Below, one piece after another: positions 10,727 through 64,000 of a stretch of DNA of 64,000 nt (position 1 is the stretch's first letter; each line of letters begins with the position of its first letter). The stretch is from positions 1-64,000 of the IMG/VR virus record IMGVR_UViG_3300022699_000502; one strand, 5' to 3'. The notes beneath the pieces were generated by a model. That model was not told where the DNA came from. It saw only the letters and a program-made list of their open reading frames with translations, and searched no databases. A program made the position numbers and the translations under genes. The DNA is from a virus (taxonomy: Duplodnaviria > Heunggongvirae > Uroviricota > Caudoviricetes).

Positions 10727-10786
10727 AACCTTTATATAATCCTACGTATTTATTTATGTGCCAACCACACAAAAATAGTGAGGGGT

Positions 10787-23381: not shown

Positions 23382-23553
23382 CATCTTCCTCCAAATCTGT
23401 CATTGTTACACTTTTTATGTTCCTCATGGGATAATATATTAGTCCATCATCAAAGTATATTTCTAGGTTTTGCTCCGACATATGTACGATTTCTTCTGTT
23501 GTTATCTCTTCCATATCTCCATTCATAAAATGGATTGTTACTTTTGTTTTCAT
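23374..23553 (-). CDS. hypothetical mini-protein (59 aa; hand-translated)
   Basis: MKTKVTIHFMNGDMEE...; ATG overlaps the ligase gene's stop as ATGA. Confidence 0.35.
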   Translation of the reverse strand: MKTKVTIHFMNGDMEEITTEEIVHMSEQNLEIYFDDGLIYYPMRNIKSVTMTDLEEDDG

Positions 23554-24437
23554 TTAAATGCCTCCCTATTTATAACTTGTCTTAATACTTCTTCGCACCT
23601 AGTCCCCACCATATTCCTTATTTCTTTGAAGTTTAGTTCCCAATTATTCCATATTATTTCGTCCCACTCTTCACTCCATATGTCTTTGTATACCGTATCC
23701 ATGAGTTGCGGCATTATCTCCATCTGTATGTTTCTGTTGTATTCGTCTCTTATCTTATATATGTTTTTTTCTATGCGGTGGTTAGTTACGTATTTGCTTA
23801 CGAATTTTTCGTTGTCGTCTGCTGCCCTGCCTTTTGGTTTCCCGTAAACTTTATCCCTTTTCTCAAAAAATTCTTCAGCTCGTTTTTTACTGAAGAACTG
23901 CGTACCATAACACTTTAATACCACTCCTTCTGCCTTACCATCTCTATATTCACTGTCTGGAACCTCTATGTCCTTTGGTGATACATGTCCTACAATAGTT
24001 ATTAAGGGCACCATATCAAAATTTAAGTCTTCAAATACTAACTGTTTTTTTGCATAACTTACAAATTGTTCATTTTCCTCGTCATATATGTCGAACCACA
24101 ACACATCAGGCATATTTTCCCAATCATACTCTAATGCATGCGGTACCATCTGTTCACCAAATAATGTTAAGTTATTATGTCCAAAATGTTCACATAATAT
24201 TTGTGACATCTCTTCAGGTGTTGTTTTGTTGTTAACATAATCTATTGTTTGCTGGAACTGTTCGCGATTACCGTTTAATCCAACAACGTTTCTACTCCTA
24301 AACAAAAAGCCATCGTTATTCAGTTTAACACCAACATTAGCACCATCCAACTTTTCTTCGATTATAACATCTCCAGAACCCTGTAAATTACTTATGTCTT
24401 CGCTCCCAAACTCACTTATTTTTGGATACTTCTTCAT
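23550..24437 (-). CDS. ATP-dependent polynucleotide ligase (nucleotidyltransferase superfamily; RNA-ligase-like)
   Basis: 295 aa; motif I EEKLDGANVG (KxDG); motif IV AEGVVLK (EGxVxK); small size and KLDGxN favour an Rnl2/Rnl3-like RNA ligase over a replicative DNA ligase. Confidence 0.7.
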   Translation of the reverse strand: MKKYPKISEFGSEDISNLQGSGDVIIEEKLDGANVGVKLNNDGFLFRSRNVVGLNGNREQFQQTIDYVNNKTTPEEMSQILCEHFGHNNLTLFGEQMVPHALEYDWENMPDVLWFDIYDEENEQFVSYAKKQLVFEDLNFDMVPLITIVGHVSPKDIEVPDSEYRDGKAEGVVLKCYGTQFFSKKRAEEFFEKRDKVYGKPKGRAADDNEKFVSKYVTNHRIEKNIYKIRDEYNRNIQMEIMPQLMDTVYKDIWSEEWDEIIWNNWELNFKEIRNMVGTRCEEVLRQVINREAFK

Positions 24438-27403: not shown

Positions 27404-27475
27404 TTGCGGGTGGAGGAATCGAACCTCCGACTACCGGGTTATGAGCCCGGTGCCCTACCACTAGACCAACCCGCA
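27404..27475 (-). tRNA. tRNA-Met (anticodon CAU), initiator-like
   Basis: folds by hand as a 72-nt cloverleaf; 7-bp acceptor stem (U1:A72), U8, A14, D-loop GG, anticodon stem CCGGG/CCCGG, loop CUCAUAA with U33 and A37, 5-nt variable loop, T-arm GGAGG-TTCGATT-CCTCC; three G:C pairs next to the anticodon loop; no encoded CCA. Confidence 0.85.
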
Positions 27476-27477
27476 CA

Positions 27478-27771
27478 TTATCCTATAACATTTTTTATGG
27501 TGAATTCCCATCCACCCTTTCCGTACGTCCCTTCAACACTTACTTCCATCACATCATCTAAAGGCACCACAACTATGTCCGCCGTTATACCCTCATCATA
27601 GATGTCACCTCGTCCATCATTCTTAAAGTCATCAGCAACCATTGAACCACTATTGAACGTACTCGCATCGATATGTAGTTTGTTTATTGCATCTAATCTG
27701 TTTTTTGCCTCGATTGTACCTAAAATTTCGACTCTACCAAATTTTTTGATTCCAACCATATATTCCATCAT
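27478..27771 (-). CDS. hypothetical protein (97 aa)
   Basis: coding-strand ORF between the tRNA and aRF1. Confidence 0.4.
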   Translation of the reverse strand: MMEYMVGIKKFGRVEILGTIEAKNRLDAINKLHIDASTFNSGSMVADDFKNDGRGDIYDEGITADIVVVPLDDVMEVSVEGTYGKGGWEFTIKNVIG

Positions 27772-28754
27772 TTCACCTCATACCTCAATATTAGGCCGTG
27801 TTCGAATGTATCCTTGAAGTTTTTCCCATAATCCGTTGATGTATCTATATCTATTATGTTCGTTCCATATTTTTCAGCTAACTCTTTATGTTCGTCGTTC
27901 GTAGTTAGTAGTGTGTCGCCGGCTCCCATCCGTAATACCCTCTGTACGTCCTGCCCGTACGTCGCCATATCTTGTGTTATCTTCTTTTTGAACTCCTCTA
28001 TTTTTTCTTTCTGTTTACCTTTGTGTTTCTCTTCTATTGTTTTATGTGCCTTGTCCGTTAGTTCATTTAGGCCGTTTATGTTAGTGTACTCCACTGTATA
28101 TGTGTCTTGTGCTCCTATGTCGCAGTTTTTTAGGAAGTTTGTGGGGGTTAGGCCGGTCCCTCCCACAAACACGTAGTCGTGTGAGCCTATCAAATGCTTT
28201 GCTTTCTCACATACTTTCTTGTAGTATTGTTTTGCGCGCTCCTCTATGTCTCTTTCGAACCTTTGCGCCGATTGTCCACCCTGGCTATGTTTACTTGGTA
28301 CTAATGAATTTATGTGTTCTAATTCCATCGTACTATTATTAACGTGTTCACCTATGACGGCTTCTTTCCGGTCTAACACTATAAGACCTATCGATATTTT
28401 GTCTTTGTTGAGTACATCTAGTAGGGGTTGTACATAAAATGTGTTATCACAATAATACTTGTTTGGTACCTCACCTTCCACTTCGTATACCTCACATACT
28501 TCTTGTTTATCGACATCTCCTGAGAATACTACCAAAGATGTATCTAAATTGTTTATTCCTTTTAAAACGCGAATAATACGCTTTAGAGCAGCTTTAACGT
28601 TTCCCCTCGTCTCCTTACTCTTGATGTTATCGGATTTTGCGAGCTGTTGTTGTAATTTACTCTTCATCGCATTAATGTTATGGTCTTTATTTATGTATAC
28701 ACTTATCAGTTCCGTGTTGTTACCCCTCATGTCTTTTAGGTCCTCTACATCCAT
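27768..28754 (-). CDS. class-I peptide chain release factor, aRF1/eRF1 family
   Basis: 328 aa; N-term LKDMRGNNTELISVYI (compare eRF1 LEAARGNGTSMISLII); NIKS motif; YYCDNTFYVQPL (eRF1 YxCxxxF YLCDNKFH); GGQ motif HSQGGQSAQRFER. Confidence 0.8.
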   Translation of the reverse strand: MDVEDLKDMRGNNTELISVYINKDHNINAMKSKLQQQLAKSDNIKSKETRGNVKAALKRIIRVLKGINNLDTSLVVFSGDVDKQEVCEVYEVEGEVPNKYYCDNTFYVQPLLDVLNKDKISIGLIVLDRKEAVIGEHVNNSTMELEHINSLVPSKHSQGGQSAQRFERDIEERAKQYYKKVCEKAKHLIGSHDYVFVGGTGLTPTNFLKNCDIGAQDTYTVEYTNINGLNELTDKAHKTIEEKHKGKQKEKIEEFKKKITQDMATYGQDVQRVLRMGAGDTLLTTNDEHKELAEKYGTNIIDIDTSTDYGKNFKDTFEHGLILRYEVK

Positions 28755-37231: not shown

Positions 37232-37257
37232 ATTTATCTAATCTATAATACATTTAA

Positions 37258-37290
37258 TTATATATAAAGGTTTTGGGAATGGTATGGATT
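37258..37290 (-). promoter_or_regulatory. conserved viral promoter element copy (last before the strand switch)
   Basis: ttatatataaaggttttgggaatggtatggatt. Confidence 0.55.
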
Positions 37291-37363
37291 AAAAATTGAA
37301 AGTGTGGAATTTTGAAGATGTCATTATGTCATAATGCGTTATTCCGAAAACTTTAAATAGTAA

Positions 37364-37804
37364 TTGCGTATTATTTATATTATGCGATGGACTCCAGAAG
37401 ACGAAAAAGAGTTAATGGATTGGTATGAGCTGTGTGGTAGTGATATCCCGAGTTTGTTAAATAAAGGGTATACTAAGAGTCAGATTAGGAGTAAGGCGTT
37501 CAGGATGGGATTATCAGAGAAGAATAAGTGTGGTCCTGGAAAATGTGATTTGACGGAACAGCAACTACTAGATATGTACCATGGTGAATACATGACAATC
37601 GAGCAGATTGCCGAGAAGACTGGGTGGGCCGAACAAACCATCTATAGGAAGATGCACGAGTATGAAGTGCCGTTAACCGGCAAGTTTCGGTATACAAAAT
37701 GTAGTGAGTGCGGGAAACGTATTAAGGCGGAGCGCGCTGATATATTGGATGATGATGCGGTTTTATGTGATATGTGTAAGGTTATGCGTAATTTAGGTAT
37801 CTAG
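37364..37804 (+). CDS. HTH-repeat DNA-binding protein with C-terminal zinc ribbon
   Basis: 146 aa; repeated ~40-aa HTH-like units ending RMGL / HEYEV, resembling the N-terminal repeats of the adjacent LAGLIDADG protein; CSECGKR ... CDMC. Confidence 0.5.
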   Translation: MRIIYIMRWTPEDEKELMDWYELCGSDIPSLLNKGYTKSQIRSKAFRMGLSEKNKCGPGKCDLTEQQLLDMYHGEYMTIEQIAEKTGWAEQTIYRKMHEYEVPLTGKFRYTKCSECGKRIKAERADILDDDAVLCDMCKVMRNLGI

Positions 37805-38872
37805 AGACTTTTCAAATTGTCTTTTTTTACGTTCTAAATACGTTTGTGCATCATCATATAAATATTCGTAAATATTCCTTTTATCGGTTTGTTTTCCGTA
37901 ATGTACAACGTAGTTTTCCTTTGATGGGTGTTTATATATGTCGTTCTTCGAATTTATTATAGTACCAATTATTTCGTTTACGTCTTGCATAAGTTGACGT
38001 GACCCGCATATCGTGAAACTATTACCGCTAATACTGCCGTCTGCATCAAACAATCCCCTTATGAAATGTCTGTGGTATTTTTCGGGTATATCTGGCATAT
38101 ATGTCTTATGTGACTTACACGGAACGACACCATATTTTTCTAAATCCTCAACTATCTTCTTTCGGGTTATCGATAAAGCAAATCCGTCCTTACCCGATTC
38201 GTGTATGCTGTGCGACGAACTCATTGCGTTTCTTAGTTTCAAAAGATGGTCGGTATCTTTCGCGTTCAATGATACAGTTAAACTATATCCCGTACCACCT
38301 TCTCCTGTTTTACCTATGTTTCCATCACCAACTATGAACCCCAACCAATATGCCTTTTCAGAACTATCCATCTCTTCGAAATAATCTTCGTCTACTTCTT
38401 TATATGAGTACTTTGTGTTCAGCCCATACTTCTTCAGATTCCTATAGACTGTATGCGGCGAAATATTGAGTGCATCCGCAATTTCCTGTTGTGTCATATC
38501 CTTATCATGGTACATTGTGTTTAGCATATTTTCCGTCGAATCGTAATCATTCAAGCTAGTTCTACATAATCCCATATCCTTCAAATAATTCGATATTGTT
38601 GATGTTGAAACCGAGAAAACCGAAGCAATTTTTTCTCGCGACAGTCCTTCATCAATATACATCCGTTTTAACATATCCTTATCTAATTCTTCTTGTACTC
38701 TCGTTTTGTTTTCGGACCAATCAGTTCGTTCTTCTATTAACCCAAACTTGATTATATGTTCATTGATATGCGATTTATCTACGTCTAGCAGACCCGCAAT
38801 GCGCTTGTGTGAATACTTTTTGTCTACGTACAAGTTCCGCAAAATCCGCTTCAATAACTGTTCTGCATCCAT
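37793..38872 (-). CDS. free-standing LAGLIDADG homing endonuclease with three N-terminal HTH repeats
   Basis: 359 aa; two LAGLIDADG motifs LGFIVGDGNIG and GLFDADGSIS; N-terminal repeats (each ending K-F/M/Y-GL). Confidence 0.75.
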   Translation of the reverse strand: MDAEQLLKRILRNLYVDKKYSHKRIAGLLDVDKSHINEHIIKFGLIEERTDWSENKTRVQEELDKDMLKRMYIDEGLSREKIASVFSVSTSTISNYLKDMGLCRTSLNDYDSTENMLNTMYHDKDMTQQEIADALNISPHTVYRNLKKYGLNTKYSYKEVDEDYFEEMDSSEKAYWLGFIVGDGNIGKTGEGGTGYSLTVSLNAKDTDHLLKLRNAMSSSHSIHESGKDGFALSITRKKIVEDLEKYGVVPCKSHKTYMPDIPEKYHRHFIRGLFDADGSISGNSFTICGSRQLMQDVNEIIGTIINSKNDIYKHPSKENYVVHYGKQTDKRNIYEYLYDDAQTYLERKKRQFEKSLDT

Positions 38873-38879
38873 AATATAA

Positions 38880-39725
38880 CATTGTTGCCGCGCTATTTAA
38901 ACTTTTTGGAATGTTTGGCCAAATAACCACAAAATATGCTGTATTTTTGTCGTTAATCGTATAAAATACCAAAAGATTTAAATATTATATATGTGTATAT
39001 GTATATGTGCGGTCTTTCCTATTTAAATGTTGCGGTGAGTTAGCGGGGTATTTAAAGGTTGGGGTGGACAGATTTTCATATTTTTTTCATACCCCTGTCC
39101 CCACGGGGGCATTTTCCGGGAAAAGTATTTAACGTTCACCAACTAACTCTGCGAGCTACACCGGATAGTTGCTGTATAGCTGCAATTTACTCGTAGGTGA
39201 TTTTCGGTACAAAATTTGTAGATGGCGGGGGGTTTATATACCCCTTTATATACGCAAATTATATGCCAACATTTGGGCGCCCGAAACCCTATATAAACCC
39301 CCCGCAAAAAATCGCGATAAATGTATACTTTCATAGAATTAATAATATTATAGCGCATTGATATATCCCTGCCGATTTTGCGCTCTAGATGGGAGTTACT
39401 CGCAGATATAGCGCAATCCTGAGAGCTACTCGCAGAAGGTTGTTTACCCCCCCTAAAAAGCGATATATCCCTGCAAATTTTGCGCAATTTTAGCCTTCTC
39501 CTATATAAAGTTTTTGCATAAAGTTTATAAACCCCCCGGCAAAAATTCGATAATATTATAGATTTATCGCAAAACCGATATATCCCTGCTAAAAAGCGAT
39601 ATATCCCTGCAAAATCACCGCAAACTTTATATACTACTTGGGTTTTGTCGGTTTTGGGAAAAACCCAAAAACTACCCTTGGGCATCGAGTCCAGAATCTT
39701 TATATATCCCTTCAGGGATATACTA
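38880..39725. repeat. iteron- and palindrome-rich ori-like or strand-switch control region
   Basis: 4 copies of CGATATATCCCTGC (39360, 39463, 39577, 39596); inverted pair GGGGGGTTTATATA (39226) / TATATAAACCCCCC (39289), plus a TATAAACCCCCCGGCAAAAATTCGATAA repeat (39517); TATTTAAA x4 (38888-39056); TTACTCGCAGA x2. Confidence 0.6.
39702..39721. promoter_or_regulatory. perfect palindrome TATATCCCT-TC-AGGGATATA (operator-like) 6 nt before the ATG of 39727..40284
   Basis: 9-bp arms; its half-site ATATCCCT is the core of the four upstream iterons. Confidence 0.6.
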
Positions 39726-39726
39726 A

Positions 39727-40284
39727 ATGATGATACCGAACAAAAGAAAGGCGAGATTAGCTGGGAGTATCTATAGGAAGGGCGGAATATATGTGTATCC
39801 TGACCGGTATGAGTGGCGGGCACGCATGTATATGTTATCGAAGACGGACGCGGATAGGGTCGCAAACTCGTATTTGCGCAGAGTCGTCGGTAAAAAGGGC
39901 CAAGTTAAGGAAGTTGGAGAAAGATATAAGGTTGTTTTGTATGGTAAAGACCAGGTTGAACAGTTGCAAGAAATTTATGATGAATGTATGAACGCATTGC
40001 GCAATATGGAATTTGATGGAAACCCGTTTTTGGATGTCGATAAGGAAAATTTCTTGTGGGAATTTGTGAAAGGATTGTTCAAAAGCGGCATGGCAGATAA
40101 GGAAAATGGCTGTGTGTTCCACACGCACGACGAATACCTGAAGAATCTGTTGTTGAAAATCCTGATAGAACTTGGAGTTGACCACGAGATTTTGGGAAGT
40201 GGACCATGGCGCTTCAAATTTTCACAGGATACGAGGGAATATTTAGGTGGAAAAAAGATATTACCTGGAAACTTTGACTGGTGA
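39727..40284 (+). CDS. hypothetical protein with basic N-terminus (185 aa), candidate iteron/palindrome-binding factor
   Basis: first plus-strand gene after the repeat region; N-term KRKARLAGSIYRKGGIYVY; no secure family assignment. Confidence 0.45.
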   Translation: MMIPNKRKARLAGSIYRKGGIYVYPDRYEWRARMYMLSKTDADRVANSYLRRVVGKKGQVKEVGERYKVVLYGKDQVEQLQEIYDECMNALRNMEFDGNPFLDVDKENFLWEFVKGLFKSGMADKENGCVFHTHDEYLKNLLLKILIELGVDHEILGSGPWRFKFSQDTREYLGGKKILPGNFDW

Positions 40285-40599
40285 CCTTGGCGTCGATGTT
40301 CGCTTGCTCATGAAACCGAAACGCGAAGACGTCGTCTACCAGTACACCGTGTCCATAATCTTTATATAGGACCTGAAAGGTTATAATAGATGCCCAACCA
40401 ACAAGAGCCTCCCACAGGAAAAAGACGGAACGGTTCGGGTCATTATATATTAGCGCGATTCTTGGACGGATGTCGATTTGCGCTTTAGATTTTTGATGAG
40501 GTTGGGATTTTAGGGTATTTTTAGGGTTTTTGGTGACTTGTTGTGCTAGCTGGCAGGGTGGCAAACCCCGTTCGCGGTGGGAATTTTGTCGAGATGGAG

Positions 40600-40800
40600 G
40601 AGCTGTGCTCACTTACGCATGGTATGATGGAAGATACTGTGTGATAATGCCATAAAGTGCCTCACTTACGGTGGATCATAAAGGTGTGGTCACTAATGTA
40701 ATGGGTTTAGTGTAATGGGGGGTGTGGGATATGCGAAAATTCGCATATTAGAAATTGCGCGTTTTAGAAATTGCGCATTTACTAAATTGCGATTACAAAA
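40600..40800. repeat. left flank repeat block of the GC-rich module
   Basis: TCACTTACG at 40609 and 40662; palindrome ATGCGAAAATTCGCAT at 40731-40746; tandem TTAGAAATTGCGC x2 (40748, 40765). Confidence 0.5.
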
Positions 40801-40940
40801 TTTTTAAAATTCCCCCAAAATCCATAAGGTTTATATAGGTTTAAACCTATATGGTGTATTGAGTAGGTTCGTGGTGCGTAATATGTGTTATATTACGCCA
40901 GAAACCGAAAATTAAGAAAATTGTATTGGAGGCATAAAAT

Positions 40941-41246
40941 ATGGAACAAGACGAGTTTGAAGAAATGGAGTCGGTTAGTACGAGAGCAATACGCTTAGGT
41001 CGTGTACAAAAGTTAATTTTGAGGGCATCGATGGATGAAGGACCAATGCGACAGAGGACGTTAACAGAGAAAGTTAACGAATTAGGCGATAAAGAAAGAA
41101 GTGAACAAACAGTTCGACAAAGTGCGATAAAGTTGCATAAAAAAGAGGAAGTGCCATTTGAGCGCAAAGATAACGGGAATTATATATATTACGGTATAAG
41201 CAATATGAGTGCGGCAAAAAAGATGTTTGGGAAAACATACGACTAA
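40941..41246 (+). CDS. winged-helix transcription regulator-like protein (101 aa)
   Basis: RVQKLILRASMDEGPMRQRTLTEKVNEL ... wing ERKDNGNYIYYGI; visibly GC-richer codons. Confidence 0.5.
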   Translation: MEQDEFEEMESVSTRAIRLGRVQKLILRASMDEGPMRQRTLTEKVNELGDKERSEQTVRQSAIKLHKKEEVPFERKDNGNYIYYGISNMSAAKKMFGKTYD

Positions 41247-42895: not shown

Positions 42896-42924
42896 AACCC
42901 TTCCTTTTCTTTTTTTAACGTTAA

Positions 42925-43100
42925 TTGCGTCACTTACGCCATAGATTGGTTAGTGGTCGGCGCGTCACTTACGCCATAAAATTTGATGCGCATTTTCGCA
43001 ATTTAGAAATTTCGCCGTTTACGCATTTGCGCAGTTTACGAATTTTCGCATACACAAAATACTAGTTGCGAATTTTCGCAATCTGCGAATTTGCGCAGGG
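42925..43100. repeat. right flank repeat block of the GC-rich module
   Basis: TCACTTACG at 42930 and 42965 (variant TCACTAACG at 43241); palindromes ACGAATTTTCGCAT (43038), TGCGAATTTTCGCAA (43067), TGCGAATTTGCGCA (43085); TTTAGAAATTTCGCC. Confidence 0.5.
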
Positions 43101-43505
43101 TCCCGCCTAGCGCGCCGGTACATGGTCCGGTTGGTCCCGGACGCGTACCCGGTCCACAATTTGTTGAAAACGAAGCCGCGGGCTCACTTGGGCAATTTAA
43201 GGTGAACCCGGAAAAATTTGTTGAATACCGGGGGGTCCCCTCACTAACGCAATAAATTTTATTTACGGTTTTAAATATTTTATAAGATTTGTTAGAGGTA
43301 TAAAATATTTTTAATTTTAAATAATTTATTGTCCTAAATAGCACAACAGTAATTATTTAAAATTTAAATATTATAAGGATAATTTAAACTAAAATCAGTA
43401 AATATGACGATTGTATGACAAAATTAACTATTTGTCATAAAACTGTCTGACGGTGTTTAATTAATATATTTTTATTATTTAGTTATTTTTTAAATTATAC
43501 TTATC

Positions 43506-43524
43506 GTTTAGATGACATCTAAAC
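43506..43524. repeat. palindrome GTTTAGAT-GAC-ATCTAAAC (left copy)
   Basis: 8-bp perfect inverted repeat with 3-nt spacer; same arms as 46409..46429. Confidence 0.5.
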
Positions 43525-44017
43525 ATAAAATTAGTGTTTATTTTTATAAAAATAAAATTTCAATAGGTTTATATGTAAAGTCTGCGTTAATTAAAAAAAA
43601 GAAAAAAAAAAAGAGGTCGGCTGGGCATACCTCTCAAAAAGGTTTGTAGGTTAATTACCTATGAATCTTGAGATAAAAATAAGCAAAATTGTAGGTAATA
43701 ATTTAAATCCTTATCTAATTTATTAAGTAATTTCATAATAACTTTATTTGGTCGGTATTACTGACTAAATAGAAATTAAACATTAAACTATCATACAGTT
43801 ATTAACTACCCTTAAAATAGGTTTAAACAATATTCAAGAGTAAATTAATACATACTTTTAGTATGCTTAAACATTAATCCTAATAAATTAGATAATAGGT
43901 TTTTTAGAATTTTTTTGGATAAACCAAATATAAAAAATCAATAATTCTGTATGTATGAATTTAAGTAGTATATACAGAATTAAAAAACCATTAAAATATA
44001 TATGTGAGGCGAATAAA

Positions 44018-44500
44018 ATGAAAAAAGAAGATATAGATAAATGGATAGAAGAAGCGAAAATAACAACAAACAACAAACAAAATAGTCTAAATATGAATGT
44101 AAGGGCAGATAGGTTATTATACCTATTTATCGGAGATAAAGAAAATAGGAAAATCCTTTATGGGAATGGATTACAGCAAAAAAGGATAAGAGATAGTCTG
44201 GTAAAATTAGGAATAGAAGAAGATAGTATAACCAGTCAGACCATTAGGAAACAAATGAGAAAAAACGCAGTAATAGATTATAACTGTAAAGAAACTAATG
44301 GAGATAATCCAGAAAATAAAACAAACAAACCTATATGGGCTAATAAAAGAAATTTCATTTATTACAGAGTTAATCCATATTATGTTAAGGAAAATATGGA
44401 TTTAAGGAAAGTCAGTAAAGTTGAAGTCAGTAATACAGTTAAGTCTATCATTAAATTCATTAAAAACCATCGACCAAAATTATATAATCTAAAGAAATAA
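44018..44500 (+). CDS. basic K/N-rich protein P1 of the AT-rich island (160 aa from the GAGG-linked ATG)
   Basis: GAGG 8 nt upstream of the ATG at 44018; very AT-rich codons; possible HTH near RIRDSLVKLGIEEDSITSQTIRKQMRKN. Confidence 0.5.
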   Translation: MKKEDIDKWIEEAKITTNNKQNSLNMNVRADRLLYLFIGDKENRKILYGNGLQQKRIRDSLVKLGIEEDSITSQTIRKQMRKNAVIDYNCKETNGDNPENKTNKPIWANKRNFIYYRVNPYYVKENMDLRKVSKVEVSNTVKSIIKFIKNHRPKLYNLKK

Positions 44501-44514
44501 AAACCTTTTATTTT
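44499..44514 (+). terminator. intergenic oligo-T element AAAAACCTTTTATTTT
   Basis: repeated after P1, P2 and P4; followed by TTTTTATATAAA TATA-like box. Confidence 0.35.
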
Positions 44515-44540
44515 CTTTTTTTATATAAATGGTGATAAAA

Positions 44541-44930
44541 ATGAATTTAGAAGATATGTATAAATTAAACATAAAATTCAATAATAGATATAGACTTAAG
44601 AATACAATTAAGAAAATAAAAAACAATAGTGAATACAGTAATTATGAGAAAATAAAAAGAATCAGTAGGTTAAAAAAGACCACAAAATTACATAATTGGT
44701 ATAAGTTATTTTCTTATTTTATAAAAGATAAGAAAATAATAACTGATACCGATTTAATTTTTACTGCATACAGATATATAACCAAATATACAGATATAAA
44801 AATAACCACAGTAATAAATAAATTTAATGAAATAGAATCATCATTAAAAACTAAATGGATAAAAGAAAAATCATTTTGGGTTAATATACAAAATGATGAA
44901 TTTTATCTTATCAGAAGTCTATGGAAATAA
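44541..44930 (+). CDS. basic K/N-rich protein P2 (129 aa)
   Basis: GGTGATAAAAATG start context. Confidence 0.5.
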   Translation: MNLEDMYKLNIKFNNRYRLKNTIKKIKNNSEYSNYEKIKRISRLKKTTKLHNWYKLFSYFIKDKKIITDTDLIFTAYRYITKYTDIKITTVINKFNEIESSLKTKWIKEKSFWVNIQNDEFYLIRSLWK

Positions 44931-44935
44931 AATAA

Positions 44936-44950
44936 AAACCTTTTATTTTT
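44936..44950 (+). terminator. intergenic oligo-T element AAAAACCTTTTATTTT
   Basis: second copy. Confidence 0.35.
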
Positions 44951-44994
44951 TATTTTTATATAAACTAAAAAACCTTTAATTTAGATGTGATAAA

Positions 44995-45423
44995 ATGATA
45001 TATGAATTTAATAGACCAGAAGAAATAAATTTAAAACCCTTTAAGGTTATTTTCAATAAAATAACCCTATCTGAAAATAGAAATCATTTAAAGATAAAAC
45101 TATCCTATTGGGATAATTGCCAAAGGTTAAGAGAAATAAATAAAAGGAAAAAAGAAACTGACTTATATATAAAAATACCAAAGAAATTAACTGATGATAT
45201 TAAGGTAAATATCAATAAAACAATAAACCTAAATTTAGAATTGGAATTAATCCATACAGTAATTAAAAATATAAAATATTTAATTTTACATAAAAATAGA
45301 AATTACAGTAAATATCATTATACAAAAATACAGAAAATTATAAGATTTTTAGAAGATATAGAAAATAAAATTTCCAGAAGGATAGATGTTAAACCATTAA
45401 ATGACTTATTTGGTGGTGAATAA
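44995..45423 (+). CDS. basic K/N-rich protein P3 (142 aa)
   Basis: GATGTGATAAAATG start context. Confidence 0.5.
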   Translation: MIYEFNRPEEINLKPFKVIFNKITLSENRNHLKIKLSYWDNCQRLREINKRKKETDLYIKIPKKLTDDIKVNINKTINLNLELELIHTVIKNIKYLILHKNRNYSKYHYTKIQKIIRFLEDIENKISRRIDVKPLNDLFGGE

Positions 45424-45424
45424 A

Positions 45425-45790
45425 ATGATAAAAAATACTTCTCTTATTGGATTAGGGAAAATAGTACATTTAAGAATAAACCAAATAGTAACAGATATAT
45501 CAGAAAATACAATTTATTTAGAATTTAATAAACATAATAGTGATAAAAACCATACTGATACAATAAGAATAATTGAAATAGATAAAAATAACATTAAAAC
45601 CAATAAATATAATGACCCAATTACTGAAATAACAATAAATGATGATACATTTATTAAAATAACATTTAATCAGTTATATAGTTGGATAGATACAATAATA
45701 TCATTTATTACGATAAATAATCAGATAGAGTTAAAAAGAAAATTAGAGAAAATACAGTTATTCTTAAATGAATATATAGATTATATCTAA
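45425..45790 (+). CDS. K/N/I-rich protein P4 (121 aa from the GGTGA-linked ATG)
   Basis: GGTGGTGAATAAAATG start context; abuts the P3 stop. Confidence 0.5.
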   Translation: MIKNTSLIGLGKIVHLRINQIVTDISENTIYLEFNKHNSDKNHTDTIRIIEIDKNNIKTNKYNDPITEITINDDTFIKITFNQLYSWIDTIISFITINNQIELKRKLEKIQLFLNEYIDYI

Positions 45791-45804
45791 AAACCTATTT
45801 TTTT
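45789..45804 (+). terminator. intergenic oligo-T element AAAACCTATTTTTTTT
   Basis: third copy (variant). Confidence 0.3.
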
Positions 45805-46057
45805 TATTATATTTTTTTGAGAATTTTTATTGGAATTTTTATATATAAATTAATTAATCCTTAATATCTATTATCCTATTTTCTATCTTAACATATAGGT
45901 TATAGATTTATCAAAATTAGGTTATTAGAAGTCTTATAGTGGGGTATATTACCGATTGAATTAATTGATTAAGGGTTAATAACATTTAGACTTTTTAGAT
46001 ACAATATAAAAATTATGATAATAGAAAATATAAATCTAATTTTGTGTGTTTTATCAT

Positions 46058-46222
46058 ATTTCTATTTACTCAATTCTTATAAATTAGTTAATTGTTAAAT
46101 TTTTATTTCTATAAACCTTAATCCTATAATTAACCTATATTTTATTTCTATAAACCTTAATCTTATAATAAGATATTTCTTATTTCTATTTACTTAATTC
46201 TTATATTAATTAGTTATTTCTT
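46058..46222. repeat. nested direct repeats R1-R2-R2-R1
   Basis: R1 ~36 bp TATTTCTATTTACT(C/T)AATTCTTATA..TTAGTTA at 46058 and 46180; R2 ~29 bp TTTATTTCTATAAACCTTAATC(C/T)TATAAT at 46097 and 46140. Confidence 0.5.
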
Positions 46223-46408
46223 AATTGATAGGTTAATATATATTTTATATCTATAAATTAAAAAATTCTGTAATTTTTTTTTTATAAGATTAATCCTAAT
46301 ATTAATTAAAATTTAATTTTTTTTAGATTGAGTTAATAAAAATATTTTCTATATTGAGATATTTTTATAAAATATTTTTAGCCGAATCTCAAATAAAAAT
46401 CATCTAAT

Positions 46409-46429
46409 CGTTTAGATATTATCTAAACG
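46409..46429. repeat. palindrome CGTTTAGATA-T-TATCTAAACG (right copy)
   Basis: 10-bp arms; core GTTTAGAT..ATCTAAAC is identical to 43506..43524; preceded by a partial CATCTAAT. Confidence 0.5.
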
Positions 46430-46784
46430 GAGAGATGAATTTTTTATATTCTTATAAAACAATTAAGGTAAATTAATTAATTAGTAGGTTTATTAAAATA
46501 TCTCTATATATGTGTGTATGACATATCGTCAGACATATTTATATTGAGATTTTAAATATTATACGGTATTAAATTGAGAATTTAAAATAATTTTATTTGA
46601 GAAAAATTTTCATTAATTATTTAAAATTTTAAATAATTAACAAATCTGTAAAATAATTTTTAATTATTAAAATCACAAAATAAATTTCATTTGTCACTGG
46701 TTATTTAAATTATATACAAATTTAAAATTTTTTTACCCTCCAATTATTCCAAAACATTTATATAGTACCCCATTTATATAATAT

Positions 46785-47318
46785 ATGATGGGTTGCCCAA
46801 TATGTGACCATGAGAACAGGGATGATATCGAAGCGGAAGTCGCGAACGGTTTCCCTAAAAAGATAATCGCGCAAGATATTGGATGCAGTATCGAGGACAT
46901 ATTAGACCACATGGAAAACCACTCAAAATACGGCCAGCCCGGTGGTGAGGACGCTACCATGGAGGACCAAATTGGGGGCCACTACAAAAATATGTACCCT
47001 CCCAGGGACTCATACGAAAAATACGACGTGCTGAACACGAATATGGAGCGCCTTACAGACCGGTTCGACAGCTTGATGGAGAAAGACCATCTCGACAAAG
47101 ACGACACAAAACAGATAGTTAGTATGGCGCGCGAACTCAGGCAAACAGTGATGAATTTGGCCGAATTAGAAGGCGAATTACACAAGGAGCTTGCCCTAAC
47201 AAGGGCGCAATTTGAAGCGCTCAAAGAAGCCGTTCTACGCGAACTTGACCCCGACACGCAAGAGGTCATAATCAACGCGATCGATGAGTCCCAAATAGAA
47301 GTAGAAGCTGACCAATAG
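46785..47318 (+). CDS. terminase small subunit candidate
   Basis: 177 aa directly upstream of TerL; N-terminal CPICDH and HTH-like AQDIGCSIEDILDH; C-terminal coiled-coil, the usual TerS architecture. Confidence 0.55.
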   Translation: MMGCPICDHENRDDIEAEVANGFPKKIIAQDIGCSIEDILDHMENHSKYGQPGGEDATMEDQIGGHYKNMYPPRDSYEKYDVLNTNMERLTDRFDSLMEKDHLDKDDTKQIVSMARELRQTVMNLAELEGELHKELALTRAQFEALKEAVLRELDPDTQEVIINAIDESQIEVEADQ

Positions 47319-48967: not shown

Positions 48968-49057
48968 TGGCTCAATCCCGTTCCGTTTTCCTTTCGGTGT
49001 TTGGGCGACTAACTATATGTGTAAGGTCATATATAAAGATTATGGACAGGTGTTCAC

Positions 49058-59400: not shown

Positions 59401-62400
59401 ACCATCACTAAAATTCAGTGATACTGTTGAAAGTGATGATCATGCGGGTGTGATATTATCAAGTGAGACGACTAACGATAAGCACACATATATACATAAT
59501 TATGACAATTCACTATTATTTATTGATGACAGAGAAACTGTAAATACATCACCGGTACCTGACATAAATAATACATCCGATATATTTAATGATACGAAAA
59601 GCCAATCTGCGCAATGGACGGATTGGGATGCAGCAAAACCAGTAACGATCACAATTGATTCAAATAATCATGATAGTTCGTCGATTGATTATATTTACTT
59701 TGATTTTGAGAATGGAAGATATTGTTCCGATATAAAAGCAGAGTATTATGATGGTTCATGGCATACATTTTATAATACAACAAATAATGATGATGAATTA
59801 CCATTTATACACAAAAGCGAATTTAGCGAGCAGGTTAGCGGCTGGATACAACTTAAGTTCACGTTTGACGGTACGTTAGCATACACGGATGATCTGCGTA
59901 TTGATGAAATAGGTGTATTTAGTCCGGATGAAGATGAAGGGTTTGTGATGAAACGTAGCGGTGGGAATATATATGATACCATCGATATGAACCAAAATAG
60001 TATCATTAATGCAAGCGCATATAATGGTGTGGACATAAATACACATATAACTGATGCAGATGCGCATCACTGGCATGATGATCATTATGGCCTCATCAGA
60101 TATCAGAGTGTACCGCCCGGAACTACCAAATTTGAGCAAGTATATATAGATACCGATGATGATACCTTACAAGTTTATGATGGCGGTGCATGGGTAACGA
60201 TAGCTGGCGGCGGTACAGCGCCACAAAACTTATCCGACTTGAACGACGTTACAGATGTATCATATTCGGCAGGCTATACATTAAGAGCAAACGGATCGCA
60301 ATATGTTACGGCCCAATTAGATCATAGCGATTTGGCAGGACTAAGTCCTGATAACCACCACACAGCGTTCACACCGACTGATCATGATTCTAGAGATCAT
60401 AGTCCTGTTGCATCTACAATGGACTTGAATGAGTTAGCAGCACCTTCCTCCCAACTCGACATCAATTATCAAGACCTCGATAATGTAGGCGTAATAGATT
60501 TCGATACAACTCCTTCAACAACATCACATCAAGAGGGTAGAGTAAGGTGGAATAATACTGATAAAACTCTACAAGCGGATACTGAAATAACTGATGTTTC
60601 ATTACAAGTCGGTCAAGAAATGTATGTAAGAGTCCAAAATAATACTGGAAGCACTATTAATAATGGCGATGTAGTATATATTAATGATGGTTCTTCTGAT
60701 AATCCTACTATCGGGTTAGCACAAGCAAATGATAAAAATAAAGCCCATAGAACCATAGGTATGGCAACACACGATATATCCGACGGCTCAATTGGATATG
60801 TAACAACGTACGGTAGAATTAGAGGATTAGATACTTCATCCTACACATTAGGCGACGAATTGTGGTTAAGCCCAGATACTGCTGGCGGTGTTACAGATAC
60901 AGAACCGGTCGGATTGGATAACAGGATAAAAGTAGGGGTAGTAATAAGAAGTGATGCAAGTGATGGTATCATATTCTTCAATAAAACTCAATTCTTTAAT
61001 GCATCAGATATAAAGCTCAATAATGCTGCTAATGCATCATATACTAACTTACAGCAAAAATTAGACCATACCGCTGCAACCGGCATATATGAAGGCGGGG
61101 CGATAACTGATAATGGTGACGGAACTATCGATATATCTGGTGGTAGTGCCCAAATTAAAACAAGTAGTAGTTGGACTGCTGAAGTATTAGAAATAGATTT
61201 TAGTAGTGCAACAAATTTAACACCAACAGACGATGATAGTACATATTATTATTTGGATTATAACGGTGGTAGTCCAACAATCTCGTCAACTACATCTAGA
61301 GATAGTATAAATTTCCAAGACGAATTATATATCGGTAAGGTATATAGGAACGGTACGGACATAACCATAATAAATACTTCACAACAAGTGGCTGGAATAA
61401 CAACTAAAGGTCTATATTCAACATATTATAAAGACGAAGTAAAAAGAGTAACTGGATTAACATTGAGTGAAACTGGAAACAGGTATTTACAAATAACGGC
61501 TGGGTTATTATTTTATGGATATACAAGGATAGACATAAGCGCTAAAGATACATCAGGAACAGACACATTCACATATTGGTATAGAGATGGTAGTGGTGGT
61601 TGGACGACGACTACTGGTAATACGCAAGTATCCAACCAGCAGTACGACGATGGTACTGGAACCCTAGCAAATATCGAAAATAACGACTACGGTGTATTTT
61701 GGGTTTATATGGGACACGACGGGAAATTACATGTACAATATGGACAAAATTCTTATAATAAATATGCAGATGCTTTGAATGCAACTATACCAGATGCGCC
61801 CGATTTATTGGGTACCTTCTGTACATTCATCGCTAAAATCATAATTGAAGAAGACGGAACTAACTTTGATGATGTACTGATACCATGGATGAACGGTGGT
61901 GTTGGTGGTGCTACCGTTACAGACCACGGTAATCTAAGTGGATTGGGCGACGATGACCACCTACAATACCTGTTACATGACGGTAGTAGAGCTATGAGTG
62001 GAAATTTAGATATGGGTACAAACAACATCACTAATGTAGGCAATGTAGATGGTGTAGATGTATCTGACCATAGCACGAGACATGAAGATGGTGGTGCAGA
62101 CGAATTGAATGTGGGTGGGTTATCAGGAGAATTAGCCGACCCACAAACGCCTAAAACACATGCTAGCACACATTATGATGGTGGAACCGATGAGTTGGAT
62201 GCTGCAGATTTAGCAGGAGCATCAGGAACATCCGGACAATATTTGAAGACGGATGGATCAACAGCAACTTGGGCAGATATAGAAGCTGTATCGGATCATG
62301 GAAACCTTACGGGGCTTGATGATGATGATCATACCCAATATTTGCTGGTTGATGGTACCAGGACTATGAGTGGAAACTTAAATATGGACGGAAACAATAT

Positions 62401-62644
62401 AAATAGTGTTGGGGCTTTAACAACTAACACAATAACAGTTAATAATTCGATGAGTGCAGATTCGATCACAGCAAACACAACGTTGGATTGGTCTGCAGGA
62501 GAAGCATTTCCAAATATTATTGAGCAGAATAGCGAACCAAGCTTGTCCTCTGGAGCTTGGGGAGTTTGGTATGATAATGATGACGACCAAATGTGGCTTA
62601 TCATTAACCACGGAGGAGATCAAAGAAAAGTAGAGATTGCGTAA
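56435..62644 (+). CDS. giant repetitive D/H-rich fibre-like (receptor-binding) protein, 2069 aa, GTG start
   Basis: internal repeats (TDxxAITAINxDxDHGSTAQHDY x4, VKTGDDEVYxL x3, DGTSWxGAxAEAAVG x2, LSDLxDVxxxxYTDGYVLRAxGS x4); HxxxHxxGGxDEL motif at the N-terminus and twice near the C-terminus; extremely acidic. Confidence 0.8.
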   Translation: MHDKIHGVSHEYGGEDEISVDSLSGLLVDPQYTRVLDSGAYEGTSYTLDFDTGLRAQLDVDDVVVTLDAILSDLDDVSGISYDTGKVLVGDGSEFHADYLSHSALLGLTDDDHLEYLPRDGQRAMYGDLDMGSQEITNVTYVDGIDISEHDHDGDAPNVPMEGLLDINGFSKLDLGKYVDRPIPGIQDRVYTAYDSQVGFWYDDGSSWRALTTKNHQSLTGIKSDDHHSRYTDGEAITAINTDGDHGSTAQHDYYTDSDAITAINNDTDHGSTAQHNYFSGSHDDLTDVSVNDHISNITDIPNRDHNDLNNIGTSDHHVKTGDDEVYALTRYQSAQPGTPSAGMTYMDSDNDIIYVYDGTSWQGAKAEAAVGILSDLGDVTNVDYTDGYVLRADGSKYVSTTLNHDDLTNVNSDDHHSRYTNSEAVTAINDDSDHGSTAQHDYFSGSHDDLTDVSATDHIQNLNQIPTRSHDDLQNIDSSDHHVKTGDDEVYGLIHYDDSSPGDSQLGLAYVDTYDNILYVNDGTSFVGVKGASPSIFLEDIQDVSDVSYNAGYVLRADGSQYATSTLRHTDLTNVQPEQHHVAFVGLEDNQGVVVQPAPDDRVQFTDDEIVNADAVDSTVAFSIDQSKISHDSISGVSPDDHHNAFIGLEDEDGAVVDPAIDNRIQILGDDTISIVGSASVLNLSASVGNIHHDSLLGLTAHNHHYKTVDDEVYGLTRRQSNAPGSPSAGMTYMDAENDVIYVYDGTSWSGARAEAAVGQLSDLSDVQNIGYTDGYVLRASGSYYETSQLSHTDLGDIGSSAHHTRYSDEEAQDAVGPIVTGGTNIDVTYNDGVPSIVVDNTQSKYTDEEAQDAVGNIMVGTGATTVDYDDSTDTITIDSTQLNEETVQDYAWDVLDGTQTLINVTYDDQNDNVDFVVRESEINHNNLINGSQIDAHHTRYTDMEAINAVESYGALDISVTNSDMVDSYHASAFVLESGDSMSGNLKVPSLKFSDTVESDDHAGVILSSETTNDKHTYIHNYDNSLLFIDDRETVNTSPVPDINNTSDIFNDTKSQSAQWTDWDAAKPVTITIDSNNHDSSSIDYIYFDFENGRYCSDIKAEYYDGSWHTFYNTTNNDDELPFIHKSEFSEQVSGWIQLKFTFDGTLAYTDDLRIDEIGVFSPDEDEGFVMKRSGGNIYDTIDMNQNSIINASAYNGVDINTHITDADAHHWHDDHYGLIRYQSVPPGTTKFEQVYIDTDDDTLQVYDGGAWVTIAGGGTAPQNLSDLNDVTDVSYSAGYTLRANGSQYVTAQLDHSDLAGLSPDNHHTAFTPTDHDSRDHSPVASTMDLNELAAPSSQLDINYQDLDNVGVIDFDTTPSTTSHQEGRVRWNNTDKTLQADTEITDVSLQVGQEMYVRVQNNTGSTINNGDVVYINDGSSDNPTIGLAQANDKNKAHRTIGMATHDISDGSIGYVTTYGRIRGLDTSSYTLGDELWLSPDTAGGVTDTEPVGLDNRIKVGVVIRSDASDGIIFFNKTQFFNASDIKLNNAANASYTNLQQKLDHTAATGIYEGGAITDNGDGTIDISGGSAQIKTSSSWTAEVLEIDFSSATNLTPTDDDSTYYYLDYNGGSPTISSTTSRDSINFQDELYIGKVYRNGTDITIINTSQQVAGITTKGLYSTYYKDEVKRVTGLTLSETGNRYLQITAGLLFYGYTRIDISAKDTSGTDTFTYWYRDGSGGWTTTTGNTQVSNQQYDDGTGTLANIENNDYGVFWVYMGHDGKLHVQYGQNSYNKYADALNATIPDAPDLLGTFCTFIAKIIIEEDGTNFDDVLIPWMNGGVGGATVTDHGNLSGLGDDDHLQYLLHDGSRAMSGNLDMGTNNITNVGNVDGVDVSDHSTRHEDGGADELNVGGLSGELADPQTPKTHASTHYDGGTDELDAADLAGASGTSGQYLKTDGSTATWADIEAVSDHGNLTGLDDDDHTQYLLVDGTRTMSGNLNMDGNNINSVGALTTNTITVNNSMSADSITANTTLDWSAGEAFPNIIEQNSEPSLSSGAWGVWYDNDDDQMWLIINHGGDQRKVEIA

Positions 62645-63542: not shown

Positions 63543-63589
63543 GGTGAGTATTATGGTAGATATTAAGATTAAAATATTAGGTGATATAT

Positions 63590-64000
63590 ATGGCAGATGG
63601 ACATACTAAATTACATTCCAACGAACATCTTAAAGGGAACGTAGACGAACTGACAGGTTTAGACGCAACACAGATCGCCGATGGTACAGTTAACAACACG
63701 GAATTCGAGTACCTAGATGGTCTTAGCGGTACTATAGCCACCGAAGACTATGTTGATAGTAAAGTACAAGGGATAGATTGGCAGGATTCTGTTATAGATA
63801 AGGATGTTTCAGACCCATCAACTTTGACACCGAGTGATGGTGACCGATATATAGTCGCTGCGGGTGGTTCTGGAGATTGGTCAGGACATGACGATGACAT
63901 AGCAGAATATAATGGAAGTAGTTGGGAATTCATTACACCAAACGAAGGATTTGCAACGTGGGTAGAAGATGAAAATATCCAATATGTATGGAATGGTTCA
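63590..64000 (+). CDS. second fibre-like protein (partial, runs off the window)
   Basis: hand-translated MADGHTKLHSNEHLKGNVDELTGLDATQIADG... carries the same HxxEHxxGxxDEL N-terminal motif as the 2069-aa protein. Confidence 0.5.
   Translation, partial: MADGHTKLHSNEHLKGNVDELTGLDATQIADGTVNNTEFEYLDGLSGTIATEDYVDSKVQGIDWQDSVIDKDVSDPSTLTPSDGDRYIVAAGGSGDWSGHDDDIAEYNGSSWEFITPNEGFATWVEDENIQYVWNGS

Follow-up and report, generated by a model that had tools for sequence, protein, structure and literature searches.

A conserved non-coding region precedes an orphan gene

This work concerns a short intergenic region, non-coding region 1 (NCR1), and the gene for a 185-amino-acid (aa) protein directly downstream of it, in a 64,000-nucleotide stretch of DNA (hereafter the window) from IMG/VR record IMGVR_UViG_3300022699_000502. 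The source is an uncultured tailed virus of ~137 kb with genes for a large terminase (TerL), a portal and a 2069-aa tail protein; small genes make up a long leftward block, and the structural block facing it runs rightward. NCR1 lies between a minus-strand gene for a free-standing homing endonuclease and the plus-strand 185-aa gene (Table 1). The first-pass annotation, made from the sequence alone, had reported ~850 bp without a convincing open reading frame (ORF) between the flanking genes, and this was borne out: 38873–39726 contains no conserved frame, indels between lineages have lengths that are not multiples of three, and substitutions are distributed 71/56/62 by codon position, with none of the three-base periodicity of the coding control (the 185-aa gene, 71/40/101). 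A minus-strand ORF at 39143–39865 (180–240 aa), part of which is the JGI call of a 180-aa minus-strand gene across the repeats, was ruled out as a gene because it is absent from both relatives of the region.

Those two relatives, the loci L121 and L122, are the only ones found, and both keep the whole of NCR1. Their homologues of the 185-aa protein are 81% (P0002, L121) and 50% (P0003, L122) identical to it and are the only two among 5.8 billion clustered proteins; a HMMER search of 1.84 billion cluster representatives with a three-sequence profile matched only P0003. These three lineages, the window's included, are all that turned up among ~15 billion proteins. Neither the region nor the protein had a DNA or protein match in ~50,000 phage records, in which the TerL is only 26% identical to those of Streptomyces and Microcystis phages. 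Scans of IMG/VR with the protein, its alignment and a conserved pattern of 21 specified bases gave no match, and a 14-mer scan gave only single chance matches. There was also no match in scans of metagenome contigs with the protein alignment and a pattern of 26 specified bases, and the genome collections searched held nothing similar to the window. Within NCR1, the core at 39340–39640 is 80% identical to L121 (coding DNA 77%) and 73% identical to L122 (adjacent coding DNA of the 185-aa gene 62%). This identity, equal to or above that of coding DNA in both relatives, points to functional constraint and supports the view of NCR1 as a functional, non-coding region packed with repeats of the protein-binding type.

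The earlier placement of the strand-switch point at NCR1 was wrong. In L122, a 141-aa plus-strand homologue (66% identity) of the 140-aa gene abuts the non-coding region directly and the endonuclease gene is absent. The endonuclease gene is therefore an insertion, and the real switch lies at 37232–37381, ~1.5 kb to the left. The inserted gene has its own TATA box (38894–38901, with the ATG 21 nt downstream), and at its 3' end it shares 12 nt with the end of the 140-aa gene, stop codon included.

Table 1. Coordinates of NCR1, its features and its flanking genes in the window
Feature	Position	Strand	Remark
140-aa protein gene, HTH_7/Myb-like domains and zinc ribbon	37382..37804	+	conserved left neighbour of NCR1
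Free-standing homing endonuclease gene, helix-turn-helix (HTH) plus LAGLIDADG	37793..38872	-	phrog_4645 (5e-58), LAGLIDADG_3
NCR1, conserved non-coding control region	38873..39726	none	854 bp here, ~1045 bp in L122
Most AT-rich stretch, 18–23% GC, alternating TA/TG tract	38940..39029		sole feature resembling a DNA-unwinding element (DUE)
Two leftward TATA boxes, TATTTAAA on the plus strand at 39020 and 39049	39020..39056	-	block GGGTATTTAAAGGTTGGGGTGGACAGATT identical in L122
Perfect 16-nt inverted repeat (G-string plus TATA-like box), 49-bp spacer	39225..39305		third copy at 39523–39541
Iteron I1, GATATATCCCTGC	39360..39372	+	aligned L122 position reads TGTATATCACTGC
Two TACTCGCAGA boxes	39397..39436	+	related inverted copy at 39149–39159; positions kept in L121 and L122
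Iteron I2	39462..39474	+	about +7 to +19 past the inferred start of the leftward promoter (box 39502–39509)
Leftward promoter, TATA box GCAAAAAC-TTTATATA (minus strand)	39502..39509	-	in the most conserved block of NCR1
Iteron I3	39577..39589	+	exact GATATATCCCTGC copy
Iteron I4	39598..39610	+	21 bp after I3; 15 bp upstream of TATA box 39626
Rightward promoter, TATA box CACCGCAAAC-TTTATATA	39626..39633	+	inverted copy of leftward box 39020–39027; kept in L121 and L122
TATA box TTTATATA of the 185-aa gene, GTCCAGAATC upstream	39699..39706	+	ATGs 20 and 23 nt downstream
Putative operator, perfect 20-bp palindrome TATATCCCT-TC-AGGGATATA	39703..39722		two inverted iteron cores
185-aa orphan gene, candidate binder of iterons and operator	39727..40284	+	predicted two-domain LAGLIDADG fold

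One element recurs five times and changes in concert

The 13-mer GATATATCCCTGC is present in four exact copies (iterons I1–I4), all on the plus strand. Four copies had been annotated for the 14-mer CGATATATCCCTGC; the count stands for the 13-mer, and the 14-mer itself occurs three times, copy 1 being preceded by T. The iteron core TATATCCCT has six copies in the window, every one of them within NCR1 (1.1 expected; 0 of 100 shuffles reached six), and none was found in a further 8.9 kb of flank, 73 kb being covered in all. Confinement of the sites to NCR1 agrees better with local control or self-regulation than with a regulon spread over the genome. The core also makes both arms of the palindrome that ends the region, as the first-pass annotation had noticed. 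That palindrome is indeed perfect; its distance to the ATG at 39727 is 4 nt and not the 6 nt given before. We refer to it as the operator, for reasons of position set out below. With its conserved flank, the iteron covers ~20 bp (GATATATCCCTGCAAAWTT).

The sites have changed together between lineages. All four iterons of L122 read (Y)GTATATCACTGC in place of GATATATCCCTGC, with flanks that are otherwise invariant (TTATCGCAAAAC...; ...AAAATCACCNCAAAC), and the left arm of the L122 operator shares the C-to-A change, such that TATATCCCT has become TATATCACT in all four repeats and in that arm. L121, whose protein is the closer of the two, retains the window-type iteron sequence, with I2 decayed to GCGAACTATCCCTCC. 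The operator reads TATATCTCTTGAGGGATATA in L121 and TATATCACTGCAGGTATATA in L122. Divergence of the protein thus parallels that of the repeat, which is unchanged at 81% protein identity and altered in all copies at 50%.

The spacing of the sites is also preserved. From I1 through I2, I3 and I4 to the operator the distances are 102/115/21/103 in the window (~10, 11, 2 and 10 helical turns), while for L121 they are 103/116/20/115 and for L122 103/116/21/206. The last interval, from I4 to the operator, differs by indels of ~1 helical turn in L121 and ~10 in L122. Several sites that one co-evolving protein contacts on the same face of the DNA would be expected to change in concert and to keep their phase in this way.

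NCR1 is rich in archaeal-type promoter boxes

Ten TTTAWATA boxes, in both orientations, fall within the 0.85 kb of NCR1, compared with 0.67 per kb elsewhere and 0.3 ± 0.6 in shuffled NCR1. Three of the TATTTAAA boxes that had been annotated as repeats are indeed there (38894, 39020 and 39049); judged by sequence, the TATTTAAA/TTTATATA boxes, which account for the annotated TATTTAAA and TATATA repeats, are archaeal TATA boxes of the methanogen type. In Methanocaldococcus jannaschii the TATA box is TWTATATA, with a 9-nt B recognition element (BRE) upstream and the transcription start 23 ± 2 nt past the box, and the study that measured this describes the box pattern as seemingly confined to methanogens (PMC2699501). 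The window boxes match this TWTATATA form and the position of the upstream BRE and, by their distances to the ATG, are consistent with the 23 ± 2 nt spacing. Bacterial sigma-70 promoters were also considered and rejected, the 5 sites in the region being no more than chance (6.0 expected).

Genes elsewhere are preceded by about 30 further boxes, each class of which has its conserved element, ATTCCCAnnAnn or GTCCAnAAnn, on the upstream side; two classes can be told apart. The first (13 copies) has the form ccATTCCCAnnAnn-TTTAWATA, ~23 nt, A, a GAGG Shine-Dalgarno sequence and ATG. The second has the form (G/A)TCCAnAAnn-TTTAWATA with the ATG 20–23 nt past the box and no Shine-Dalgarno sequence, an arrangement that implies leaderless mRNAs and is found at no fewer than seven genes. 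The promoter grammar, together with archaeal gene content (Hjc, AGOG, an eRF1/Pelota-like protein and a TerL of Pfam family MJ0330_N), makes it very likely that the host is an archaeon, and the promoter type suggests that it is probably a methanogen.

The promoters inside NCR1 point both ways. CCTATATAAAGTTTTT at the leftward promoter (box 39502–39509) is invariant in the three lineages. The 185-aa gene appears to belong to the leaderless class. Two in-frame ATGs, at 39727 and 39730, follow the end of its operator at distances of 4 and 7 nt. In L122 the ATG comes exactly 23 nt after the box and the protein is shorter by one N-terminal residue, which together suggest that 39730 is the true leaderless start. 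The operator shares the 3' half of the TATA box and takes up the interval between box and start, spanning approximately -27 to -8 if transcription begins at 39730. By analogy, a palindrome lodged between a TATA box and a leaderless start codon is in the position of a repressor site. From such positions the archaeal repressors MDR1, LrpA, Phr and Lrs14 block TBP/TFB or the polymerase; these are HTH, winged-helix or Lrp-type dimers, whereas the candidate here has a predicted LAGLIDADG fold.

A second promoter nearby (box 40830, ahead of the gene for a 101-aa protein) bears a different perfect 20-bp palindrome, ATATAGGTTTAAACCTATAT (40833–40852), in the same overlapping position, so the operator-on-promoter layout recurs in this module. 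No clustered, iteron-like copies of that palindrome were found.

The number of TATA boxes facing inward and outward in NCR1, followed by T-runs, raises the question of whether the region acts as RNA, either through small non-coding RNAs or through a palindrome hairpin that, in a transcript with a leader begun at the 39626 promoter, would mask a weak AGGGA ribosome-binding site. Within NCR1 the GC skew is the reverse of that in the flanks (+0.13 in the left part, -0.20 in the right), as if the halves of the region were convergently transcribed, and the operator arm of L121, with its C-to-T change, could still pair through a G-U wobble. Against this, RNAalifold found no structure supported by covariation on either strand (+2.9 kcal/mol on the plus strand, which is unfavourable, and -0.54 on the minus strand), Rfam searches of NCR1 gave no match either at the gathering threshold or at E <= 1, the L122 sequence breaks up the hairpin, and the concerted change of dispersed direct repeats points to recognition of double-stranded DNA. 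We regard a role as RNA as very improbable.

The downstream protein resembles a nuclease-dead LAGLIDADG monomer

The 185-aa protein is mildly basic (isoelectric point (pI) 8.9) and is predicted to adopt a two-domain LAGLIDADG fold. Structure matches align 136–152 residues of its AlphaFold model, as opposed to only ~70 for single-domain enzymes, and Foldseek searches of viral models returned mainly LAGLIDADG or intein proteins, weakly. The two motif helices read LAGSIYRKG (residues 11–19) and VKGLFKSGM (residues 114–122). LAGLIDADG homing endonucleases carry a conserved acidic residue at the end of each such helix (D21 and E117 in I-DmoI). In the 185-aa protein both catalytic acidic residues appear to be replaced: hhalign places K18 opposite the catalytic Asp of a GDG motif, and BLAST against the neighbouring endonuclease places G121 opposite the catalytic Asp of DADG. 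Both K18 and G121 are invariant in the three homologues.

The fold invites the suggestion that the gene is a selfish free-standing homing endonuclease, or one that died recently, with the repeats as remnants of its target or as an unrelated terminase or partition array. The lineage is certainly rich in such elements, given the neighbouring homing endonuclease gene and the inteins in TerL homologues. Yet in each of the three lineages, even at 50% identity, the gene keeps its syntenic place beside this non-coding region, and its substitutions by codon position (71/40/101) indicate purifying selection. The protein appears to lack the catalytic acidic residues, with invariant replacements, and it has neither the Pfam family match nor the sporadic distribution by which a LAGLIDADG endonuclease would be recognised; moreover, there is no ParA gene nearby and the terminase genes lie 7 kb away. 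We find this explanation scarcely credible.

LAGLIDADG monomers read sites of ~20–22 bp, a size that fits both the 20-bp operator and the ~20-bp conserved footprint of the iteron. On the strength of the modelled fold, the 185-aa protein is plausibly a sequence-specific DNA binder. The first-pass annotation had proposed the downstream basic protein as an iteron-binding initiator or autoregulator; the fold, the pI and the parallel divergence of protein and repeats make a binder and autoregulator plausible, whereas no initiator domain was found.

Two precedents bear on this proposal. WhiA (DUF199), a domesticated LAGLIDADG regulator of Gram-positive bacteria, has the same monomeric two-domain scaffold, carries Arg and Gly at the two catalytic positions, cannot cut DNA, and regulates its own gene (PMC3384342), as we propose for the 185-aa protein. 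In the 185-aa protein, too, a basic residue and a glycine (Lys18 and Gly121) appear to replace the catalytic acidic residues. Unlike WhiA, the 185-aa protein has no C-terminal HTH domain and ends with its second LAGLIDADG domain, it shares no sequence similarity or WhiA Pfam match, and it belongs to an archaeal virus; recognition of the DNA would fall to the LAGLIDADG body itself. The second precedent is the homing endonuclease I-TevI, which represses its own promoter, the late promoter of the T4 td intron (Edgell et al. 2004, as described in PMC3384342). As described there, a protein of homing-endonuclease type acts on an operator overlapping its own promoter, which is the arrangement proposed here, although I-TevI is an active GIY-YIG enzyme with one operator and the present case involves a LAGLIDADG fold, apparent inactivity and five sites. 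We know of no LAGLIDADG-fold regulator in archaea or their viruses.

NCR1 as a proposed transcription-control hub with its own binder

Taken together, the repeats and promoters suggest that NCR1 is a transcription-control hub whose cognate site-specific binder, the 185-aa protein, represses its own gene; we put the probability of this reading at about 0.5. NCR1 would serve as a promoter hub with its ten TTTAWATA boxes in both orientations, and one recognition element, present five times as four direct iterons and a 20-bp operator of two inverted cores, would be read by a dedicated sequence-specific protein, for which the product encoded just downstream is the most economical candidate. This protein would be a domesticated monomeric homing endonuclease that binds without cutting. 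Binding at the operator would block TBP, TFB or RNA polymerase and so repress the gene, while the phased upstream sites, lying on one face of the DNA, could support cooperative or looped binding and so place the outward promoters under this protein as well. The rightward 39626 promoter has I3 and I4 just upstream of it, and the leftward 39509 promoter has I2 a little past its inferred start. What the analysis shows directly is the repeats with their conservation and concerted change, the promoter grammar, the place of the operator and the fold as predicted; we infer the identity of the binder, the sign of the regulation (repression as opposed to activation), the looping and all start sites.

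Several observations weigh against this reading. The outer TATAT...ATATA symmetry of the operator is partly imposed by the TATA box and an AT-rich proximal element, leaving only CCCT-TC-AGGG as the operator-specific part, and the right operator arm of L122 (TATATACCT) departs from the exact iteron change. One would sooner expect a homodimer on a perfect palindrome than an asymmetric monomer of two domains. Sequence searches of Pfam, PHROGs and the PDB with the 185-aa protein returned nothing, and for Pfam and PHROGs this held even at E <= 10. The AlphaFold model, built from a three-sequence alignment, is of moderate confidence (pLDDT, the predicted local distance difference test, 65.8) and lacks the N-terminal LAGLIDADG helix (residues 1–21), and the alignments that place K18 and G121 are weak (E 0.11 and E 0.48, respectively). 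Every transcription start site is placed by its spacing from a box. The archaeal setting has contrary evidence of its own: relatives of the TerL in GTDB genomes are <=30% identical, belong mostly to bacterial metagenome-assembled genomes and in a few cases to DPANN or Asgard archaea, and are too distant and mixed for the host to be named from TerL. Two other small DNA-binding proteins flank NCR1, namely the 140-aa protein with HTH and zinc-ribbon domains and the 101-aa protein encoded at 40941–41246. Finally, a role in replication is compatible with the same anatomy, and the origin and regulatory readings are not mutually exclusive.

The flanking proteins bring in the alternative that the five sites are operators for some other protein (the 140-aa protein, the 101-aa protein or a host factor) and that the LAGLIDADG-like gene is merely a target. 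A perfect palindrome is the kind of site that an HTH or winged-helix homodimer would bind. On its left NCR1 has the 140-aa gene as a conserved neighbour, which in L122 adjoins it directly; the product of this gene, at 66% identity, has likewise diverged between lineages that differ in iteron sequence. In WhiA, too, DNA binding may have moved to a domain other than LAGLIDADG (PMC3384342). The 101-aa protein looks like a winged-helix protein by eye only and has no family match. On the other side, the operator lies on the 185-aa gene's own promoter, LAGLIDADG sites of 20–22 bp match both the operator and the iteron footprint GATATATCCCTGCAAAWTT, and none of the results favours the other proteins. 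We judge a different binder to be unlikely.

Repeat-rich control regions and autoregulated operators are ordinary in themselves. What is unusual here is the archaeal-virus setting, the orphan and apparently nuclease-dead LAGLIDADG-fold protein beside a co-varying array of five sites, and a pair of specificities that could be swapped. Were autoregulation by the 185-aa protein correct, it would be the third independent homing-endonuclease scaffold turned gene regulator, after WhiA and I-TevI, and the first in an archaeal virus. The two protein variants (window/L121 and L122), paired with two variants of the five-site array, would amount to a natural specificity experiment and would make the evolution of LAGLIDADG DNA recognition directly testable, with relevance to the engineering of meganucleases. 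Very little is known of regulation in uncultured archaeal viruses, and the window also provides a promoter grammar for an uncultured 137-kb archaeal virus, with two or three classes and with leaderless as well as Shine-Dalgarno-led genes.

Is NCR1 a replication origin?

The first-pass annotation had offered NCR1 as a candidate replication origin or master regulatory region. The regulatory half of this finds support; the origin half is unproven, there being no origin recognition box (ORB) motif, no initiator domain in the flanking genes and no regular spacing of the iterons. As an origin, NCR1 would bind initiator monomers at the four iterons and melt at the AT-rich tract, with the palindrome autorepressing the initiator gene. 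Iteron plasmids provide the model: the Rep proteins of pPS10 (RepA), F (RepE) and R6K (pi) regulate their own synthesis through inverted half-iterons. As in those plasmids, direct repeats and an inverted-repeat operator built from the same core lie over the adjacent gene's promoter at one locus. Here, however, the spacing is wide and irregular, the fold is LAGLIDADG and not a winged-helix Rep, and the promoter is an archaeal BRE/TATA promoter.

Other features also speak for an origin: the TA/TG tract of 18–23% GC at 38940–39029, which is conserved and duplicated in L122, the several further repeat families and dyad symmetry, the strong non-coding conservation, and the restriction of the sites to NCR1. 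NCR1 further shares with archaeal oriC regions (ORB/mini-ORB elements bound by Orc1/Cdc6; PMC1904270) non-coding inverted and direct repeats, G-strings and an AT-rich tract, but it has neither the TTCC...GAA core of the ORB (PMC1904270) nor an orc1/cdc6 gene nearby. ORB and mini-ORB elements are absent: TTCCANTGGAAA with <=2 mismatches has 22 matches in the window, compared with 29.5 expected, and none in NCR1. No orc1/cdc6 domain occurs among the called genes within ±10 kb, and neither flanking gene has a Rep, Orc1/Cdc6, MCM, primase or helicase domain by Pfam, PHROG or PDB searches. Iteron origins have three or more direct repeats of ~17–22 bp, regularly spaced and usually contiguous; the four 13-mers here (~20 bp with their conserved flank) keep helical phase, but at 102/115/21 bp only one pair is adjacent and the array is not a tight one. 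The AT-rich tract lies ~330 bp from the nearest of them. Elsewhere in the window, a 1-kb ORF-free stretch of ~20% GC (45790–46785) and tandem arrays in two further non-coding regions are at least equally origin-like.

GC skew, suggested earlier as a check for an origin, proved uninformative. The cumulative minimum in the window does fall at ~37–39 kb, but the skew tracks the coding strand gene by gene, from +0.40 in the plus-strand gene at 37382–37804 to -0.20 in the adjacent, inverted endonuclease gene and +0.36 at 39727–40284, so the minimum carries no information on replication. The skew switch at this locus is a coding-strand artefact and a warning for origin hunting. On balance we think it doubtful that NCR1 is an origin.

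The more specific idea that the nuclease-dead 185-aa protein is itself the replication initiator, with iteron-bound monomers opening the TA/TG tract and binding at the palindrome shutting its own leaderless promoter, seems to us improbable; we know of no initiator with a LAGLIDADG fold. If true, it would describe an iteron/Rep-style origin in an archaeal virus on a fold never seen in an initiator.

Further repeats in NCR1 and neighbouring regions

NCR1 contains repeats beyond the iterons. The inverted pair given in the first-pass annotation was confirmed as a perfect 16-nt repeat, GCGGGGGGTTTATATA at 39225–39240 and TATATAAACCCCCCGC at 39290–39305. The C-string of its right arm is missing in L121 and L122, and the perfect dyad is therefore specific to the window lineage. 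TACTCGCAGA occurs twice (39397 and 39427), the first copy inside a 39-bp imperfect palindrome (39378–39416), and the 11-mer TTACTCGCAGA occurs only once. Immediately after the stop of the 185-aa gene, a 26-nt block (CCTTGGCGTCGATGTTCGCTTGCTCA; 40285–40310, L121 1070–1095, L122 2451–2476) is near-identical in all three lineages, even in L122 where the protein is 50% identical.

Two more non-coding stretches follow. NCR2 (40285–40940, 650 bp) has a promoter box at 40361 followed by a 32-aa ORF (40390), which was ruled out as a gene by a 13-nt indel in L121; the transcript from this box is probably non-coding. It also holds four copies of a 16-bp tandem repeat, GAAATTGCGCnTTTTA, at 40735–40795. 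NCR3 (42896–43260) contains GCGTCACTTACGCCATA twice and 6–7 near-palindromic GCGAATTTTCGC/GCATTTGCGC boxes with a 16–17-bp period at 42990–43098. In NCR1, iterons 1 and 2 are flanked by boxes of the form ATTTTGCGC, which are related to those of NCR3 and also make up the array in NCR2, so a second family of binding sites links the three regions.

Beyond NCR3 lies an island of 20–27% GC (~43250–46790) in a genome of ~38% GC, bounded by imperfect inverted repeats (43256–43313/46337–46394 and 43350–43385/46604–46639). It comprises four ORFs without family matches, the 1-kb ORF-free stretch at 45790–46785 and 38–39-bp repeats at 46101–46207, and its right end is conserved in L124, a locus from the same sample as L122. 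The island could be a mobile element or an origin/unwinding region.

Further genes fill in the picture of the virus. A 328-aa protein with eRF1 domains 1, 2 and 3 (an archaeal release factor or Pelota-like protein) is encoded at 27768–28754 on the minus strand, adjoining a minus-strand tRNA-Met gene (27404–27475). The leftward block also encodes, all on the minus strand, a PolX-PHP polymerase (6157–7821), an RNA ligase (23550–24437), a radical-SAM protein (11829–12629) and a MoxR-like ATPase (1–1101), and just outside the window (L123) there are genes for DUF2201, Hjc, AGOG, RNase H and an NAD-dependent DNA ligase. The 84 kb examined showed no replicative polymerase, no helicase, no primase and no Orc1. 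Inteins occur in TerL relatives (L124 1301–3130; proteins P0007, P0022 and P0051): the TerL of the L122-lineage virus carries one and is 87% identical to the intein-free TerL of the window, and more distant TerL relatives carry inteins with LAGLIDADG domains. Two of the distant TerL loci, L125 and L126, are not syntenic upstream of TerL.

The window matches a JGI metagenome contig of 137,081 bp (sample 3300022700). Position 1 of the window corresponds to position 76699 of that record, so that the window would run ~3.6 kb past the end of the record, and the ORF of the 2069-aa protein (window 60383–64000) is continuous across that end point. This part of the window is either the wrap-around of a circular contig or a second contig with the same genes.

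The first promoter class corresponds to a ~50-nt cassette, ccATTCCCAnnAnn-TTTAWATA-ggatgaacaa-tatataataatataaGAGG, present in 13 copies on the minus strand between 1744 and 37268 ahead of blocks of small genes (sites include 1744, 11127, 15415, 21616, 26402, 31549, 34162, 36905 and 37261). By its sequence it looks like one temporal promoter class with an extra upstream element, ATTCCC. Finally, GTCCAnAAnn-TTTATATA boxes lie antisense to the surrounding genes at 10731 (plus strand), at 49030–49037 (minus strand) and in L123 (~4.2 kb left of the window start); two of them share ~30 nt of downstream sequence and one lies between the terminase and portal genes. These boxes may drive antisense or non-coding transcripts.

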